From the NCBI GenBank assembly GCA_050736695.1, contig JBOHWH010000170.1, positions 1,973 to 65,972 on the forward strand: a stretch of 64,000 nucleotides of DNA, in the 5' to 3' direction. The DNA comes from Candidatus Binataceae bacterium. Its GTDB lineage: Bacteria; Desulfobacterota; Binatia; Binatales; Binataceae. The notes beneath the pieces were generated by a model. It saw only the letters and a program-made list of their open reading frames with translations, was not told the DNA's origin and ran no database searches. The position numbers were made by a program, and so were the translations under genes. Shown here in pieces: positions 5,953 to 13,346 of the stretch (position 1 is the stretch's first letter; every line of letters begins with the position of its first letter).

Positions 5953-6208
5953 TTGATCACTCCGTATCAGCGCGTCGGTTATGGTGCCTATTATGCGAAA
6001 ACCCGTACGCTGCGACTAACCGAATTGTAACATTTAGCCCAGCTAATAGTCCAATATCGCGATAAGGACTATAAGGCAAGCTTCATCGCCTGCAAAGCGC
6101 ATCGATGAAGCGTAAAAGCGACGACGGCGCCGGCATTTAGATGCGAGCGCCGTCGTGTCTGGAGAAGGTCACGGCTCAAGGAGACCGAGTCTTATCGAGG
6201 CGACTTTC

Positions 6209-6976
6209 TCAATAGGCGGCGCTCTTGCGGGTTGATTCGACCAGGCGCTGGATTTCGGCTTCGGTGAATCCCGCGAGCAGGCGGGCCTCGCGTGCGATCG
6301 TGAGCATCATGCCGTCGTCGGTCTTCAGATCTTCGGCTGCGCGCCGGCCGCCTCGGAAGTTGAAGACTTCATCGACGGTCTCCTGAAACGCGAGCGCGGC
6401 TGCGAGCCGCTCGGGGTCGCCCTCGGTCAGCTTGCGCATCCACTTCGAGCCCATCCTGACGTGCGTGATTTCGTCGGCGAGCACGTAGTCGATCGCGCGC
6501 TCGATCACCTCGTCGCCGTTACGCTGCGCGATTCGGATCAGTTGGTCGAACACGTCGCAGGCGAGGCCCTCGAGTCCGCGATTGATCCCGGCGACGCGGG
6601 CCGCCGGATCCTCGGCTTGGGTGCATCGCCACAGGATCTCGGTCTCGACGTAATCGCCCATCTTGCCGCCCATGTAGTTCAGCAGGCGCTCGAAAATTTC
6701 CGCGTGCCGGGATTCGTCCCAGACCTGGCGCGCCATATCGAGCTGGAACTCCCACGGCGCGTCGGGGAAATCGAACAGCGTGCGTCCCGCCGCTTCCATC
6801 GCCTGGAATTCGCCGGTCATGATTCCGTGCATGCGCGCGCGCAGCGCTTCTTCGTCGAGGGGCAGCGGACGGTTGTCGAGTCCTTGCTCTTCATTGATCT
6901 CGCGGACCTGCTTCCCGCGCATCAGGACGATATGGTCGGGCCGCGCAAGGCGATCGACTGGGATACATCTTTCCAT
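6209..6976 (-). CDS. ferritin-like diiron-carboxylate protein, paralog 1 (E / ExxH / E / ExxH ligand set)
   Basis: 255 aa; helices carrying EFQAMEAAG, WDESRHAE, LEGLACD, LADEITH give classic four-helix diiron site; last gene of TetR-headed operon. Confidence 0.6.
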   Translation of the reverse strand: MERCIPVDRLARPDHIVLMRGKQVREINEEQGLDNRPLPLDEEALRARMHGIMTGEFQAMEAAGRTLFDFPDAPWEFQLDMARQVWDESRHAEIFERLLNYMGGKMGDYVETEILWRCTQAEDPAARVAGINRGLEGLACDVFDQLIRIAQRNGDEVIERAIDYVLADEITHVRMGSKWMRKLTEGDPERLAAALAFQETVDEVFNFRGGRRAAEDLKTDDGMMLTIAREARLLAGFTEAEIQRLVESTRKSAAY

Positions 6977-7071
6977 CGTTCAAATTCCTCTGAGCGTTCG
7001 TTAAGGATTCGGAATCCGGGATTCCTCGCGCGGCAGCCACGCGCGGGAATGACGGGCCGATTCGGCATGGT

Positions 7072-7872
7072 CTAGTAAGCTTGGCTCTTGCCGAAGCCTC
7101 TGACCAGGCGTTCGAGTTCTTCTTCGGTGAAACCGGCGAGCAGCCGCGCCTCGCGCGCGATCGTGATGCCCTGGTCGATCTCGATATCCTTGCCGTTGAC
7201 GCGCTGCATGATTTTGTCAGCCTTGTCGACTGTGGTGCGCGTGCCGGCGAAATTGAACAGATCGTCGATACTATTCTGAAAGTCTTGGGCTTTTTTGTAG
7301 CGTTCGGGATCGCCCTCAGTCAGCTTGCGCATCCATCGCGAGCCCATCCGCACGTGCGTGATTTCGTCGGCGAGCACGTAATCGACCGAGCGCTCGATCA
7401 CTTCGTCGCCCATCTTCTGCGCCAGGCGAATGAGTTGTTCGAAGACGTCGCAGGCAAGGCCCTCGAGTCCGCGATTGATTCCGGCGACTCGCGCGGCGGG
7501 ATCCGCGGCCTGGGTGCATGACCACAGTACTTCGCTCTCCGGAAATTCGCCGTAGAACGAACCCGTGTACTCGAGCAGCTTCATGTAGATTTCGGCGTGG
7601 CGCGATTCGTCCCAAACCTGGCGCGCCATGTCGAGCTGGAACTCCCACGGCGAGTCGGGAAAATCGAACACAGTACGGCCCGCGGCTTCCATCGCCTGAA
7701 ACTCACCGGCGCAGATTCCATGCAGCCGCGTCTTCAGGAAATCCTCTTCATAGGGCATCGCGCCGTTGGGCGTCAGCCCCTGCTCGGAGCGCGCGCGCCG
7801 CGAGCGCTCGGCGGGAACCAGAATATGATCCTCGGGGCGTGCGAGCTTATCGACGGGAATCATTCGCTGCAT
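7072..7872 (-). CDS. ferritin-like diiron-carboxylate protein, paralog 2
   Basis: 266 aa, ~65-70% identical to 6209-6976 with identical metal-ligand motifs; tandem duplication. Confidence 0.6.
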   Translation of the reverse strand: MQRMIPVDKLARPEDHILVPAERSRRARSEQGLTPNGAMPYEEDFLKTRLHGICAGEFQAMEAAGRTVFDFPDSPWEFQLDMARQVWDESRHAEIYMKLLEYTGSFYGEFPESEVLWSCTQAADPAARVAGINRGLEGLACDVFEQLIRLAQKMGDEVIERSVDYVLADEITHVRMGSRWMRKLTEGDPERYKKAQDFQNSIDDLFNFAGTRTTVDKADKIMQRVNGKDIEIDQGITIAREARLLAGFTEEELERLVRGFGKSQAY

Positions 7873-7902
7873 GATGGATCTCCTAGCTGCGCGTGGCTGT
7901 TT

Positions 7903-8289
7903 CTATCTGGTCCAGGCTGACCGCGCCTCGGTCAGGTTATTTGCTTCGCGGACGGTCCAGCGGCCATCCTCTTCGCCGAGCCGGAACTGAAGCGTGAAGG
8001 GCAAGGCTGCGCGGCCGGTCAGGCGAGCTTTGGTGTACCAATGTTTCGCGATTCGCGCCTGCCCGATGATCGTAACTTTATCATATGCACCCGGTTTGAC
8101 CGAGTCCGCAATTTTGAGCATCGCCTCGACCGCCTGCGGATGCGACGCGGTCTCGACCTCGGCGCGATGGCCGGCGACGATCGCGGCAAGGAGCGCATCG
8201 GCGGCCGCGATCATCGATTGCGGCGGCTCGACGATCCTCGCGATCGGCTGCGGCCCCATCACGTTGGCGCGGTTTCCCAAGTCAGCCAT
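7903..8289 (-). CDS. small NTF2-like (SnoaL/ketosteroid-isomerase/limonene-epoxide-hydrolase fold) protein
   Basis: 128 aa; pattern ...AAIVAGHRAEVE...YDKVTIIGQARIAKHWYT...GRWTVREAN typical of NTF2-like cone fold (C-terminal GrW-x-I motif). Confidence 0.45.
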   Translation of the reverse strand: MADLGNRANVMGPQPIARIVEPPQSMIAAADALLAAIVAGHRAEVETASHPQAVEAMLKIADSVKPGAYDKVTIIGQARIAKHWYTKARLTGRAALPFTLQFRLGEEDGRWTVREANNLTEARSAWTR

Positions 8290-8653
8290 TCGGATTGCCT
8301 CGGCGTTCAGCGGCGTAATGCTGGATATCGCTCCACGGCGATCGCTTGGTGCTGAGGTCTTCCGCGTCAGCGATTACAAATTTTCCGGCGTCAGACTTCT
8401 TCCATCGGACCAGCAGTTTGGCGCCGCCCTTGGCGCCCGAGAGGCGAAGCTTGGACATGAACTGGCCGCCGATCTTCGCAAGTGCGAGGGTCTCGAAATT
8501 ATCGAACGGGCGCAGCGATGCGATCGAGGCGAGCGCCTCGCGATAGCTCTCGCGCGCCGAGTCGTCAACATAAGTATCGGCGTCAGCGCTGCCGGCGAGC
8601 AGGGCTTTGCCGTGCGCGATAATCCGATCCTCGAGTTCAGGAACGTTCATCAA
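8282..8653 (-). CDS. small NTF2-like fold protein (paralog-like of 7903-8289)
   Basis: 123 aa; ...LLVRWKKSDAGKFVIADAE C-terminal strand pattern of NTF2-like family; 8-nt overlap with downstream gene. Confidence 0.45.
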   Translation of the reverse strand: MMNVPELEDRIIAHGKALLAGSADADTYVDDSARESYREALASIASLRPFDNFETLALAKIGGQFMSKLRLSGAKGGAKLLVRWKKSDAGKFVIADAEDLSTKRSPWSDIQHYAAERRGNPNG

Positions 8654-9267
8654 CTGCGGCCGAACTTTTTCGGCCCCTCCTTCTCGGGCTCGAAGCCCAG
8701 CACTCCGCCCGAGGCCGCCAGCAGATCCTCCAGATGCGCCTGCCAGGTGGCGGCGCGGCGATACATCTGCGCCGAGTCGAGGAGATCGCCAAGCAGCACG
8801 AGGCCCTTCTCTACGTGCGAGTTTTCCTCTTCGAGAATGCGCTGGAAAATCCGAATCGTCGGCGGCTCATAGACCGGGTTGGCGGCGGTGATAAGCGCGC
8901 TGTAGTGCGAAATGAGATGCGGCTTCAGCACGCGGTAGATTCCGGTCAGCCGCTCGATAGTGTCTTCCCACTGCTCCTTGTCTTCGATCTCCTGGATAAA
9001 GGTGACGAAGTTTTCATTGGCCGGCTTTGAGACCTGCGCTTGCGTGCGCAGCTCCGGCAAGCGCTTGCCGAGCGCGTCGGTATGGAGCGCGTCTTCGTAC
9101 ACCTGCCGTGCCATCTCGAGCTTGACCGGGACTTCGGGCGTAAGTGCGATCCATCCCGCCATCATCCGCATCATGCGCTCTTCGGCGTAGCGGTAGTTCA
9201 TGATTTGGCTCACGCTCTCGCGGACGCTGTAAACGCCGTCGAGTGTACGCCTGTCGTAAAACGCCAT
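8650..9267 (-). CDS. hypothetical helical protein, possibly metal-binding (EEENSH, YEDALH)
   Basis: 205 aa, first structural gene after TetR; stop overlaps next start (8650-8653); no recognisable family from sequence alone. Confidence 0.5.
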   Translation of the reverse strand: MAFYDRRTLDGVYSVRESVSQIMNYRYAEERMMRMMAGWIALTPEVPVKLEMARQVYEDALHTDALGKRLPELRTQAQVSKPANENFVTFIQEIEDKEQWEDTIERLTGIYRVLKPHLISHYSALITAANPVYEPPTIRIFQRILEEENSHVEKGLVLLGDLLDSAQMYRRAATWQAHLEDLLAASGGVLGFEPEKEGPKKFGRS

Positions 9268-9270
9268 CGC

Positions 9271-9951
9271 TTATGACTCCTCGAACCGCGCAATCTCGGA
9301 CGCGTCGGGCCTATCGGTCTGCTTGCCGGCTCCGGTTGCGAAAAAGCGGCCTTCGATTATTCCGGCGATCTCGCGCCAGTAGGTTTCCTTGTCGATTCCC
9401 GCAAGTGCGCGCCCGCCGGTCGCCCATCCGGCGCACAGCATATGGATGATATGCACCGCGCTCTGCAGGTTCTCGAAACGAACCACGCCCGCGGCGCTTC
9501 CGCGCTCGAGCACCCGACTTACGGCGCGCAAGTAAGGATCGATCGCCGCCGCCATCTCCTTGCGATAACGGGTGCGCCGCGCGAGGTAGCGGGCCTCGTG
9601 ATACAGGACGTTGAAGGCCTCGCGATAGCGATCGATCACGTCGAGAATCGCGCGCATCATCTGGACCAGTTCGCGGCGCGGGTCGTCGCCACCACGCTCC
9701 CGGATGACCGGCAACTGCTCGATCAACTCCGACACCATCGACTCCGCGATCAGGACCAGGATTTCGTCCTTGCTGTGCAAATAGACATAGATCGATCCGG
9801 CGGCGATCCCCGCTTCGAGCGCGAACTCCTTGACCGAGGCTTCATGAAAAGATTTGCGTTCGAGGACGCGGCAAGCCGCCAGGAAAATCTGGCGACGGCG
9901 CTGGCGGACCAGCACTTCGTCGTGAGGGAGCGATCGCAAAGCCTCAGGCAT
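9271..9951 (-). CDS. TetR/AcrR family transcriptional regulator
   Basis: N-terminal HTH RRRQIFLAACRVLERKSFHEASVKEFALEAGIAAGSIYVYLHSKDEIL; 6-frame ORF extends to 10284 but TetR domain starts at ATG 9951. Confidence 0.8.
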   Translation of the reverse strand: MPEALRSLPHDEVLVRQRRRQIFLAACRVLERKSFHEASVKEFALEAGIAAGSIYVYLHSKDEILVLIAESMVSELIEQLPVIRERGGDDPRRELVQMMRAILDVIDRYREAFNVLYHEARYLARRTRYRKEMAAAIDPYLRAVSRVLERGSAAGVVRFENLQSAVHIIHMLCAGWATGGRALAGIDKETYWREIAGIIEGRFFATGAGKQTDRPDASEIARFEES

Positions 9952-9964
9952 CGTAAGGTGCGCC

Positions 9965-11308
9965 GTGCGGCGCGGGAGTGATCGCGGTGCACGGACTGGC
10001 CAGATTCTATTGAATGAACGTTCATTTGTCAACCGTTCGGTCGAACGGTCGCGGCTCTGGCGTAATTCGGACTTTCTGAAGCTTTGGACCGGCTCGACTA
10101 TTTCGGTGTTCGGGTCGCTGGTCACGGTTGTCGCGTTGCCGTTTGCCGCGATCCTGACGCTTGGCGCGAGCCCGTTCCAGATGGCGTTGTTGCGCGCGAG
10201 CGACATCGTTCCCGCGTTGATCATGGCGCTGGTCGCGGGGGTCTGGGTCGATCGGCTGAAGCGGCGCCCGATCCTGATCATCACCGACCTCGGGCGCGCG
10301 ATCTTGCTGGCGACGATTCCGGCCGCCGCGTTTGCGCATGTGCTCGGGATGGCGCAGCTCTACGCGGTCACTCTGCTCGCCGCGATCCTCGGAATCTTTT
10401 TCGAGGTTGCGTACCGCTCTTATCTGCCCTCGATCGTCGAGAGAGCCGAGCTGGCCGAAGCGAACAGCAAACTCGGCGCGAGCGCCTCGGTCGCGGAGGT
10501 GGGCGCATTCAGCCTTGCGGGATGGATGGTGCAGGCGCTCAGCGCGCCGATCGCAATCCTGATCGACGCGATCTCGTTCCTGTTCTCGGCGGCCTTTGTC
10601 TGGAGGATCAGGGCGGTCGAGCCGGTCCCGCGCACCGAGGCCTCGCGCGAGAGTATACGGCGCGAAGTGGGCTAGGGCGCGCGCTTTGTGCTGAACGATT
10701 CGATTCTGCGCGCGCTGGTTCCCGCGATCGCTATCAGCACTTTCGGCACCAGCATGTTCGGCACCGAGTACTCGCTCTATGCACTGCGCACACTCGGCTT
10801 CAAACCCGGTGTGCTCGGAGTGATTTTTGCGATCGGCGGAATCGGTTCGCTCATCGGCGCGCTGATGGTCGAACGGATTTCGAATCGCTATGGCGCGGGC
10901 CCGACGATGATCGCCGGCTTGACGCTGTGGGGGGCCGGCGAGCTTTGCGTTCCGATCGCGCGCTCGGCGACTATGCTTGGCGCCGTGCTGATGATCGCGC
11001 AACAACTCAGCGACGGCGCGGCGATGCTTTACTACATCAACCTCACCACGCTTCGGCAGACGATTCCTCCGGACACGATGCTCGGGCGGGTGAATGCGAC
11101 AGTGCGATTTTTGGTGCTGACGTGCCAGCTCGCGGGAACCTTCGCCAGCGGAATTCTGGCCGAGGTCATCGGGCTTCGCGCGACGCTGGCGATCGGTGCG
11201 TCGGCGAATCTTGTCGCGGCAGGATGGCTGGTGATTTCTCCGATCCGGAATCTGGCGGACGTGAGCGGACCTGCCGATGCCAGAGCAACCGCCGCGCCGT
11301 CGCCATGA
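9965..11308 (+). pseudogene. MFS transporter (enterobactin-exporter/EntS-like) interrupted by in-frame TAG at 10673-10675
   Basis: Two 6-frame ORFs (9965-10675, 10688-11308) are in the same frame and together form one ~440-aa 12-TM MFS protein; the stop falls in the conserved cytoplasmic loop (REVG*GARFVLNDSILRAL). True N-terminal start uncertain (probably downstream of 10013). Confidence 0.55.
10013..10049. promoter_or_regulatory. putative TetR operator region: 14-bp perfect palindrome AATGAACGTTCATT (10013-10026) and inverted repeat ACCGTTCG-GT-CGAACGGT (10032-10049)
   Basis: Two dyad-symmetric sites sharing GAACG half-sites in the divergent region between TetR (-) and MFS (+). Confidence 0.4.
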
Positions 11309-11525: not shown

Positions 11526-11972
11526 ATGCCCGAAAATCCGCCCAAATTTGTCAGGGAAACCGCAGTCGAGCGATTCTTCAACCAAAGCTTTGGATTTCTG
11601 CTGCGCTTCGGGATTGGCGCGGCGCATAACTATTTGCTTATCACCAAGGGCCGCAAGACCGGGCGTGAGTTCTCGACCCCGGTCAACCTGCTCGAAATGA
11701 ACGGGCGCCGGTACCTGGTCGCGAGCCGCGGCGAAACCGGATGGGTCCGCAATGCGCGCGCTTCGGGCTCGATCGTTTTGAAAAAGGGCGCCAAGCAGTG
11801 GACCTGGAAGGTGCGCGAGCTTGCGATCGACGAACGTCCGCCGGTGATCAAGGAATTCCTCGATCGATTCGCGTCGTCGGTGCAGCGCTTCTACACGATT
11901 CGCGCCGGCTCGCCGGTCGAGGAGTTTCGCGCCGTGGCTCCATCCAATCCCGTCTTCGAGCTCAGCTCCTAG
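11526..11972 (+). CDS. nitroreductase-family deazaflavin(F420)-dependent oxidoreductase (Ddn-like split-barrel)
   Basis: LLITKGRKTGREFSTPVNLLEMNGRRYLVASRGETGWVRNARASG matches PF04075 core (TGRKSG...YLVAS.GG..W..N). Confidence 0.75.
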   Translation: MPENPPKFVRETAVERFFNQSFGFLLRFGIGAAHNYLLITKGRKTGREFSTPVNLLEMNGRRYLVASRGETGWVRNARASGSIVLKKGAKQWTWKVRELAIDERPPVIKEFLDRFASSVQRFYTIRAGSPVEEFRAVAPSNPVFELSS

Positions 11973-11993
11973 CGCCTTGCGCGGGATCGCCAG

Positions 11994-13346
11994 ATGACTA
12001 TCCCGACCGAGTCCGGCTTGCCGCTCTTTGCCGAGCCGCTACCGGGCGAGTCATCGACAGGCGAGCCGCTTCCGGCATTTTACGATACCGCCGAGAATCG
12101 CGGGCGCGTGCGCTCGACCGTGTGGATCCTGATCGCGATGCTGGTTTATCAGGGTTACGCGGGCTCGATCGTCGTGGTTGCGTCGCCGTGGATCGCGAAG
12201 AGCTTTGCGCTCGGCGAGTCGGCGCTGGCGCGCGTGTTCGCGTTCCTTGCGCTCGCGGCGCTCGGCTCGCTCATCCTGTCGCGGATGGTCGATAAGACGG
12301 GACGGCGGCGGGTGCTGATCTGGTCGGCGATAGCGATTCCGCTTGCGGCGCTGGGCGCGGCGGCCGCCACGAAGCTTGTGACATTCATCGCCTGCGCGAT
12401 CGTGATGAACGCATTTCTGGGCGCGGCCGCCGCTTCCTCGATCGTGATCCTGGCCGAAGTGATGCCGATCGCGCGCCGCGCCGAGGGTCAGAGCTGGGCG
12501 GGAATCGCGGGCGCCGCGGGCAGCGGGCTCAGCGTCTTCCTGATCCCGATCATCATCTCGCTTGGGGTCTCGTGGCGATGGCTCCTGGTGATCGCGGGCG
12601 CGGGAATCGCCCTAGCGCCGATGGTTGCGCGAATCAAGGAAAGCGACCGGTGGACTGCCGTCGCGATCGAAGGCGGCGCGGAGCGCACGCACTTCTATGA
12701 TGTTTTCGTGCCGCTCTATCGCAAGCGCTCGGTCACGCTGATCATCTGCACAATGCTCGCGGCCATATCGGGCGAGGGAGTGAACGCGTGGTCATACTTC
12801 CACGCTGTTTCGACGGTGGGCCTGTCGCCGGCGATCGCGAGCACGCTCACTATCGTCAGCGGAGGCGTGGGCATGTTCGGATTTCCGCTGGGCGCGTGGG
12901 CGGCGGAACGCTTCGGGCGCGTGCCGACGATAGTGTTATCCGGACTGGCGGTCTCGACGCTCGCGCTGGGTTACTTCTGGGGGCCGCCAGCGCATTTCGC
13001 GCATCCCGCGTTGTGGCTCGGATTCGCGTATCTGATCCTCAACACCTGCGCGAACGCGTTGACTGTCGCCTCGAACTCCGCAGTCACCGAGCTTTTTCCG
13101 ACTGAATTGCGCGGCACGATTATCGGATGGTTTGCGCTGGTGGGCGCTGGCGGAGCGCTGGGCGCCGAGGCGACGATCTCGATCCTCGCGCGGCGGCTCG
13201 GCGGAATCGCGGGCGTGACCGGATGGCTGAGCCTGCTCGGAGTTCCGTCGGCGATCGCATTCGGCCTGCTGATCGACGAGACGCGCGGCCTCCCGCTAGA
13301 GGCCGCCGCCAGGGAAGAAGAATTCCGCACCGGCGATCCCGGCTAG
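11994..13346 (+). CDS. MFS transporter
   Basis: 450 aa, 12 predicted TM helices, MVDKTGRRRVLIW (MFS loop 2-3 motif). Confidence 0.8.
   Translation: MTIPTESGLPLFAEPLPGESSTGEPLPAFYDTAENRGRVRSTVWILIAMLVYQGYAGSIVVVASPWIAKSFALGESALARVFAFLALAALGSLILSRMVDKTGRRRVLIWSAIAIPLAALGAAAATKLVTFIACAIVMNAFLGAAAASSIVILAEVMPIARRAEGQSWAGIAGAAGSGLSVFLIPIIISLGVSWRWLLVIAGAGIALAPMVARIKESDRWTAVAIEGGAERTHFYDVFVPLYRKRSVTLIICTMLAAISGEGVNAWSYFHAVSTVGLSPAIASTLTIVSGGVGMFGFPLGAWAAERFGRVPTIVLSGLAVSTLALGYFWGPPAHFAHPALWLGFAYLILNTCANALTVASNSAVTELFPTELRGTIIGWFALVGAGGALGAEATISILARRLGGIAGVTGWLSLLGVPSAIAFGLLIDETRGLPLEAAAREEEFRTGDPG

Follow-up and report, generated by a model that had tools for sequence, protein, structure and literature searches.

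This study concerns a six-gene operon in a 64,000-nucleotide stretch of DNA (the window hereafter) from Candidatus Binataceae bacterium (assembly GCA_050736695.1, contig JBOHWH010000170.1, positions 1,973 to 65,972 of the forward strand). On the minus strand lie, in this order, a tetR gene, a gene for a 205-residue protein (h205), two genes for small proteins (s123 and s128, the latter of 128 residues), and two paralogous genes of the DUF455 family (PF04305), whose products of 266 and 255 residues are called 'up' and 'dn'. Every open reading frame (ORF) of this order, which had been listed in an earlier reading made without database searches (the sequence-only reading), was found at the locus. 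The genes are real and form one operon headed by tetR, as had been supposed. Its junctions are tight, and it has a promoter, an operator-like palindrome that is conserved, and a likely terminator (Table 1).

Table 1. Positions of the operon features in the window and of precursor-like ORFs in related loci (L numbers)
Feature	Position	Strand	Basis or remark
Sigma-70-type promoter TTGACA-17 nt-TAGAAT, upstream of tetR	10004..10032	-	11/12 consensus positions
Perfect 14-bp palindrome AATGAACGTTCATT, putative TetR operator	10013..10026	.	in promoter spacer
TetR-family repressor, 226 residues	9271..9951	-	TetR_N, 32.1 bits (cut-off 24)
h205, degenerate DUF455-like ferritin-like partner, 205 residues	8650..9267	-	hhalign to DUF455
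s123, NTF2-like small protein, 122 residues	8282..8650	-	ATG 8650 start, stop at 8282
s128, NTF2-like small protein, 128 residues	7903..8289	-	AlphaFold2 and Foldseek
DUF455 paralog 'up', 266 residues	7072..7872	-	PF04305, 107.1 bits (cut-off 34.3)
Intercistronic spacer between DUF455 paralogs, 95 nt, GGAATCC/GGATTCC palindromes	6977..7071	-	sequence; strain-specific
DUF455 paralog 'dn', 255 residues	6209..6976	-	PF04305, 97.4 bits (cut-off 34.3)
Hairpin, 16-nt stem (88% complementary), then CGCTTTT; likely operon terminator	6121..6156	-	inverted repeat I2 and sequence
Precursor-like ORFs	L095:352-519; L104:2689-2928; L107:4459-4626; L108:2011-2175		
Precursor-like ORFs	L112:3736-3903; L149:3120-3278; L167:730-891		
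Precursor-like ORF, L116	motif starts 6588 nt into reverse complement of 8902-nt locus	-	

Layout, conservation, and control of the operon

The h205 ORF starts 3 nucleotides past the stop codon of tetR, the s123 and s128 ORFs overlap by 8 nucleotides (ATGGCTGA), and a 30-nucleotide spacer with AGGAG precedes the 266-residue ORF. Of the two overlap lengths reported earlier, the 8-nucleotide one is present, while the 4-nucleotide one needs an upstream TTG start of s123. The ATG at position 8650 is the most likely start, because the MNVP/MKVP N-terminus that it gives is kept in most close orthologs and because public gene calls agree with it. With this start, s123 overlaps h205 by a single nucleotide (TGATG), and the small ORF, whose end had been given correctly, encodes 122 residues rather than 123.

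Is this block of genes kept together elsewhere? The 80 best genomic relatives of the 266-residue protein were compared, nearly all of which are labelled as Binataceae, Binatus, or 'delta proteobacterium' metagenome-assembled genomes (MAGs). About 70 of these 80 Binataceae loci have the block TetR-h205-s123-s128-DUF455-DUF455, with protein identities from 28 to 97%. Thus, the co-conservation that had been proposed as a check is borne out for all six genes. The 266-residue protein is found with an identical sequence on three public contigs.

The two DUF455 genes are separated by 95 nucleotides containing GGAATCCcGGATTCCGAATCC. The GGATTC/GAATCC palindromes are there as they had been described, but they are not conserved; across 64 orthologous loci, the median spacer length is 31.5 nucleotides (range 12-177), and the long spacers elsewhere contain unrelated hairpin-forming inserts. 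A regulatory role of the palindrome was rejected on this ground. The long spacers of the window and of L054, L058, L059, L060, and L062 carry differing GC-rich inserts of this kind, which are reminiscent of small REP-like (repetitive extragenic palindromic) elements.

The repressor encoded by the first gene is 56-88% identical to its orthologs at the head of the block, and its scores for the Pfam families TetR_C_24 and TetR_C_29 lie just over the cut-offs. The promoter of the operon has a TTGACA...TAG/TAC arrangement that recurs in most orthologous loci despite divergent flanks, and the palindrome AATGAACGTTCATT sits in its spacer. There is a single exact copy of AATGAACGTTCATT within the window. 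An identical copy was found upstream of tetR in about 60 of 70 orthologous loci, and most of the conserved copies sit in or beside a TTGACA-type promoter motif. Since the palindrome is kept in this way amid unrelated surrounding DNA, it is read as the TetR operator, and TetR would bind to it. With a TetR_N domain and a palindrome overlapping its own promoter, the protein has the sequence features of an autoregulated repressor. Another operator-like site, at 8638-8651, was dismissed, as it has three mismatches and an equal number of such matches is expected by chance.

The FadR/FasR-type TetR repressors that sense acyl-CoA are matched below the cut-offs of their NCBIfam equivalogs (57.7 vs 200 and 38.3 vs 330 bits); this weak resemblance may hint at a lipid or a CoA ester as the ligand. 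The nearest relatives outside the Binataceae (52-56% identity) are units of TetR, DUF455, and h205 genes, with a TetR of the same C-terminal type. One of them, L145, has a PadR regulator, placed downstream, instead of TetR, and another, L135, has its own 24-bp promoter palindrome. Therefore, regulation of a small-molecule type is a feature of the subclade. At the other end of the operon, the hairpin taken as the likely terminator was not listed by a consensus terminator scan. The phosphoenolpyruvate carboxykinase (PEPCK) gene downstream of it has promoter-like sites of its own.

The DUF455 paralogs and h205

The 'up' and 'dn' proteins are 63% identical to each other. It had been claimed that both carry the full E/ExxH/E/ExxH ligand set of a diiron site, and this is correct: no substitution of the candidate ligands E57/E62, E89xxH92, E137, and E170xxH173 occurs among 84 'up' and 71 'dn' orthologs. 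In 26 diverse relatives, down to 26% identity, E57, E89, R91, H92, E137, D169, E170, and H173 are invariant as well, so that a loss of the ligands in homologs, which would speak for inactive storage proteins, was not observed. The two paralogs make up separate conserved lineages, which can be told apart at six positions (for example, F110 in 'up' and Y109 in 'dn'). This suggests a heterodimer rather than redundant copies.

The sequence-only reading had placed the two proteins in the class of MiaE, Coq7, and AurF. The paralogs share the broad ferritin-like superfamily and the type of ligand motif with these enzymes, but their family is DUF455, and none of the operon proteins matched MiaE, Coq7, or AurF sequences in Pfam or the PDB. 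The DUF455 family profile aligns the ligand motifs to the dimetal ligands of bacterioferritin (E-value 2e-6) and symerythrin (1.3e-5), and more weakly to those of acyl-ACP desaturase, aldehyde-deformylating oxygenase (ADO), and R2lox (2e-6 to 1e-2 overall); these E-values are marginal. All of these proteins have a helix-borne ExxH/E/ExxH dimetal motif in common with DUF455. However, DUF455 differs from them in length and partners and is not a member of their families, the similarity being driven by the motif. A PDB sequence search with the 266-residue protein gave nothing informative and no closely related solved structure.

A reading as encapsulin cargo was rejected, since TIGR04535 scored only 12-14 bits (cut-off 125) and no shell gene is present among the neighbouring genes examined. 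The PaaA/PaaC family (PF05138) reached 16.2 bits (cut-off 28.5), and the operon has no PaaB-, PaaD-, or PaaE-like genes. In addition to the operon, some of the same MAGs have a further DUF455 gene that stands alone and is about 80% identical to 'up' (L051:5494-10624; also L045, L050, L055, and L056). At L051, the sole lone-copy locus examined, its neighbours are radical-SAM/SPASM, transglutaminase-like, and chagasin-type inhibitor genes, and a gene for a 484-residue protein with an N-terminal 2x[4Fe-4S] domain lies nearby.

What is the 205-residue protein, previously described as an unknown helical protein? No Pfam family is over its cut-off for h205 (DUF455, 15.9 bits vs 34.3), although weak matches to DUF892, DUF455, Ferritin, and Rubrerythrin were seen. 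Its AlphaFold2 model is a 7-helix bundle with a mean predicted local distance difference test (pLDDT) score of 80.8. The structural neighbours of the model are weak and comprise heme-oxygenase-like and ferritin-like proteins, including PaaA/C and ADO, with MiaE ranked low; a PDB search with the h205 profile gave nothing informative. Homology to DUF455 is supported by an hhalign comparison (96.3% probability, E-value 1.8e-9, 156 columns). In this alignment, h205 (E58/D59)..H62 corresponds to E89xxH92 of DUF455 and h205 E148xxH151 to E170xxH173, while the invariant K115 of h205 occupies the position of the ligand E137. There is no clear equivalent of E57, and H151 is lost in distant relatives. 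Orthologs of h205 are 70-91% identical and end in an invariant G-R-S tail. Thus, h205 is most likely a degenerate, ferritin-like relative of DUF455 with an incomplete ligand set rather than an unrelated protein.

In other lineages, the two proteins are fused. When the DUF455 protein was searched against 1.84 billion representative proteins, many fusion proteins of 400-480 residues were retrieved, the N-terminal half of which is h205-like (27-39% identity, E-values down to 1e-46) and the C-terminal half of which is DUF455; secondary BLAST matches on DUF455 domains also support the homology of h205 to DUF455. Of 84 further loci, 72 have an h205-like gene or domain no more than 2.5 kb from DUF455, a count that is biased upwards because the ranking of these metagenome loci used a fusion protein as its reference; 10 of the 12 others are cut by contig ends. 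The arrangements are diverse: fused, h205-DUF455, h205-DUF455-DUF455, DUF455-h205-DUF455, DUF455-h205, and DUF455-ferredoxin-h205. Since h205 is fused or adjacent to DUF455 in other lineages, it is a regular partner of the enzyme. Distant h205-like domains do not conserve the metal ligands, whereas the DUF455 domains do; across 17 fusion proteins, the equivalent residues of the DUF455 domain never vary. This pattern of loss and retention implies that h205 is probably a non-catalytic partner. In one subclade (L087:6862-7413, L109:6495-7046, L113, and L117), a conserved protein of about 180-193 residues with no Pfam match is encoded after a split h205-DUF455 pair, and it may be another lineage-specific accessory protein.

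The profile matches raise the question of whether the DUF455 proteins are simply ferroxidase- or rubrerythrin-like proteins that detoxify peroxide or iron. Their best matches are indeed bacterioferritin and symerythrin with the ligand motifs aligned, and there are weak Pfam matches to Rubrerythrin, Ferritin, and DUF892. However, the E-values are marginal and reflect common ligand motifs, the DUF455 proteins are about 100 residues longer than ferritins, and they have a dedicated degenerate partner domain as well as NTF2-fold partners. Moreover, the regulator is a TetR and not an iron- or peroxide-sensing protein, and related modules occur within RiPP-like (ribosomally synthesized and post-translationally modified peptide), sugar-catabolic, and CoA-ester clusters. 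I therefore regard a role in iron handling or oxidative stress as improbable.

The NTF2-fold proteins and the composition of the proposed enzyme

The guess that the small proteins are NTF2-like was right, because the s128 model matches NTF2-like structures and s123 is a paralog of s128. The AlphaFold2 model of s128 (pLDDT 88.5) consists of three helices and a four-stranded sheet. The top Foldseek matches in the PDB are nearly all NTF2-like (best E-value 3.6e-4, template modelling scores of 0.55-0.6) and include ketosteroid isomerase (KSI), a limonene epoxide hydrolase (LEH)-like enzyme, BaiE, and AtzH, while a PDB search with the s128 profile gave nothing informative. The link from s123 to s128 was made by BLASTP (29% identity, E-value 1e-7) and hhalign (99.1%, E-value 1.9e-18).

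Several residues of s128 are invariant, including Y69, R79, H83, Q101, R103, W111, E115, and W126, and in s123 the invariant residues are K67, R82, W83, and D98. The termini are also conserved. The N-terminus of s128, MxDLGxRxNVMGPQPI, is nearly invariant yet disordered in the model; s123 has a conserved C-terminal K-R-S-P-W-S-D motif, and both proteins have a C-terminal R-S-(A/P)-W-(S/T) motif that lies beyond the secondary structure elements of the model. Genes of the s123/s128 type were detected only in Binataceae-type loci. The s128 family comprises 233 clusters among 5.8 billion, and all source names given are Binataceae or related MAG labels. Both evolve faster than the DUF455 proteins by a factor of 4-5, and s123 is the fastest of the block.

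In a pathway of the kind suggested by the sequence-only reading, these proteins would be free-standing enzymes (epoxide hydrolase, isomerase, dehydratase, or cyclase) rather than subunits and would act after oxidation or epoxidation of a small molecule by the DUF455 proteins. The confirmed fold, with KSI, an LEH-like epoxide hydrolase, BaiE, and AtzH as neighbours, speaks for such a pathway, as do the few invariant polar residues in both small proteins. The TetR or PadR regulator of the subclade points to a small-molecule inducer, and a second Binataceae cluster adjoins luciferase-like monooxygenase and enoyl-CoA hydratase genes. However, the small proteins of the window match no Pfam family at all, and neither they nor 26 and 42 of their orthologs match SnoaL, LEH, or KSI; one marginal match each to Tim44 and DUF4864 was all that Pfam gave for the orthologs. 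At the sequence level, neither the Asp-Arg-Asp set of LEH nor the Tyr/Asp/Asp set of KSI is among the invariant residues. The fast evolution relative to the oxidase core also argues against the pathway, as do the many lineages that have the h205-DUF455 module without NTF2-fold proteins. Finally, the copy number of the NTF2-fold genes tracks that of DUF455: h205, s128-like, and DUF455 genes stand at 1:1:1 in the second Binataceae cluster and at 1:2:2 in the window. The ratios fit accessory subunits paired with the DUF455 paralogs but do not prove them. On balance, a pathway of separate enzymes is possible but unlikely.

I consider it about an even bet that the operon is autoregulated by TetR and encodes a ferritin-like diiron enzyme of the DUF455 family with several subunits. 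TetR would be bound to AATGAACGTTCATT inside the operon promoter and be freed by a small-molecule inducer. The two DUF455 paralogs, each with a complete E/ExxH/E/ExxH dimetal site, would then probably form a heterodimeric core activating O2 or peroxide, and h205, in which at least one ligand is lost (Glu to Lys), would be the regular non-catalytic partner subunit. The two NTF2-fold proteins are most likely accessory or substrate-handling subunits, one per DUF455 paralog, added specifically in the Binataceae, and their conserved terminal peptides may dock to the core. Electrons would be supplied from outside the operon. In related loci of several unrelated lineages, small 2x[4Fe-4S] ferredoxin genes lie beside or inside the DUF455/h205 module (L085:1963-2250, L086:3755-4048, L137, L150, and L165), in the last three cases between DUF455 and h205. 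These ferredoxins are plausible candidates for the electron donors.

Several points weigh against such an enzyme, in addition to the upward bias of the h205 co-occurrence count. Since no DUF455 function and no solved DUF455 structure have been published in the literature and resources searched, the oxygenase chemistry is inferred from the ligand motif, and the closest solved sequences by profile are bacterioferritin and symerythrin rather than oxygenases. The operon has no reductase or ferredoxin gene, and no ORF of the window has a 4Fe-4S motif. The mirror-tree signal for pairing of the NTF2-fold proteins with DUF455 is weak, and it favours h205 and 'up' over 'dn'. The NTF2-fold proteins could be enzymes themselves, because the polar residues Y69, R79, H83, and E115 are kept.

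How does the proposed enzyme compare with known systems? PaaA/PaaC(/PaaB) and the multicomponent monooxygenases likewise consist of a diiron catalytic subunit, a homologous subunit depleted of ligands, and small accessory subunits, and h205 can be likened to PaaC beside PaaA or to the beta subunits of the latter enzymes. In contrast to these systems, the window has two ligand-complete paralogs instead of one, its operon has no reductase or effector protein, and its small subunits have the NTF2 fold. The beta subunits of Rieske aromatic-ring-hydroxylating dioxygenases are NTF2-like and are non-catalytic structural subunits of an oxygenase. They provide a precedent for NTF2-fold structural subunits, although their catalytic partner is a Rieske/mononuclear-iron alpha subunit and not a ferritin-like protein; no sequence similarity to them was detected in the window proteins. 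Within DUF455, a family without an assigned function, the window paralogs are clear members with the invariant E/ExxH/E/ExxH of the family, while the tandem paralogs, h205, and the NTF2-fold partners of their clade are not described in the literature searched. Each part comes from a superfamily that is already known (ferritin-like, NTF2-like, or TetR), and their combination is not described in the resources searched.

Related modules, neighbouring genes, and significance

I found that eight related loci, of a type with multiple DUF455 genes, encode a precursor-like peptide of 52-79 residues (Table 1). The peptide has a leader with the motif YxxPx(L/I)xxMxxxE(V/I)LxxFQ and a short core with an invariant WW and often a C-terminal Cys. 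Genes for h205 and DUF455 lie alongside, and there are at least two of them on complete contigs. Taken together, the eight loci also have genes for PqqD-like (RiPP recognition element, RRE), HPr-kinase-like, Asn-synthase-like, and formyltransferase proteins. The WW-peptide loci may represent an undescribed RiPP class tailored by ferritin-like enzymes; a RiPP-like context of such enzymes is not described in the literature searched.

Might the Binataceae operon also act on a protein or peptide? The DUF455/h205 enzyme could oxidize residues such as W126 and W106 of the R-S-x-W motif at the conserved ends of the NTF2-fold proteins, or the NTF2-fold proteins could present a peptide substrate. The pairing of h205 and DUF455 genes with a precursor-like peptide in the eight loci, the terminal R-S-(A/P)-W-(S/T) motif of both NTF2-fold proteins, and the nearly invariant disordered N-terminus of s128 would be consistent with this. 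However, no precursor-like peptide of the RiPP type and no RRE, kinase, or cyclase gene was found in the window or in any Binataceae locus. The RiPP-type DUF455 proteins are among the more distant relatives, the closest relatives being two-gene units headed by TetR or PadR, and the link to the NTF2 termini is one of analogy only. I consider modification of a protein or peptide by the operon very improbable. A broader idea is that DUF455 and its h205-type partner constitute an unrecognised class of diiron oxidases whose substrates include peptides or proteins in addition to small molecules, and that the NTF2-fold termini of the Binataceae operon (R-S-x-W and MxDLGxRxNVMGPQP) would be modified sites or substrate-delivery handles; this is speculative and quite improbable.

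For the multi-subunit diiron enzyme, there are weak hints to lipid or CoA-ester chemistry in the resemblance of the TetR and in the enoyl-CoA hydratase and thiolase neighbours of the paralogous and related clusters. Fused h205-DUF455 forms occur in loci resembling sugar catabolism. The second Binataceae cluster (L015:6959-11859; also L033 and L126) lacks tetR and consists of h205, one s128-like gene, and one DUF455 gene. In L015, it is followed by two luciferase-like monooxygenase genes and an enoyl-CoA hydratase gene, and an FAD_binding_4 oxidase gene lies divergently.

The sequence-only reading had added a divergent exporter of the major facilitator superfamily (MFS). The MFS gene next to tetR (window 9965-11308, plus strand) has an in-frame TAG at 10673-10675, where the ortholog of L010 has Glu, and it is split in the same way in the public contig carrying the region. 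The split may represent either a pseudogene or a shared sequencing error, and the supposed exporter is probably a pseudogene. Nor is it a conserved part of the locus; the gene is present only in the closest relatives and absent from most orthologous loci. The usual divergent neighbour elsewhere is an F420H2_quin_red-like gene, mostly with a second MFS gene beyond it. These two genes, the former encoding an F420H2-dependent quinone-reductase-like protein (PF04075), are found at 11526-13346 of the window on the plus strand and are conserved divergently to tetR in most Binataceae loci.

The Binataceae, uncultured and abundant in soil, are a lineage whose metabolism is known through genomes alone. 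The ferritin-like family DUF455 is widespread, has kept its dimetal site intact, and is without a known function; the present locus is a well-delimited target for assigning one. Together with its relatives, it offers a defined set of subunits made up of two ligand-complete paralogs, an obligate degenerate partner that is fused to the enzyme in other lineages, and two NTF2-fold accessory proteins, as well as a likely repressor and operator for inducer screening, and candidate ferredoxin donors. If the enzyme is an oxygenase, it would have a new architecture among diiron enzymes, and new peptide-tailoring chemistry would be indicated by the RiPP-like clusters that share the module.

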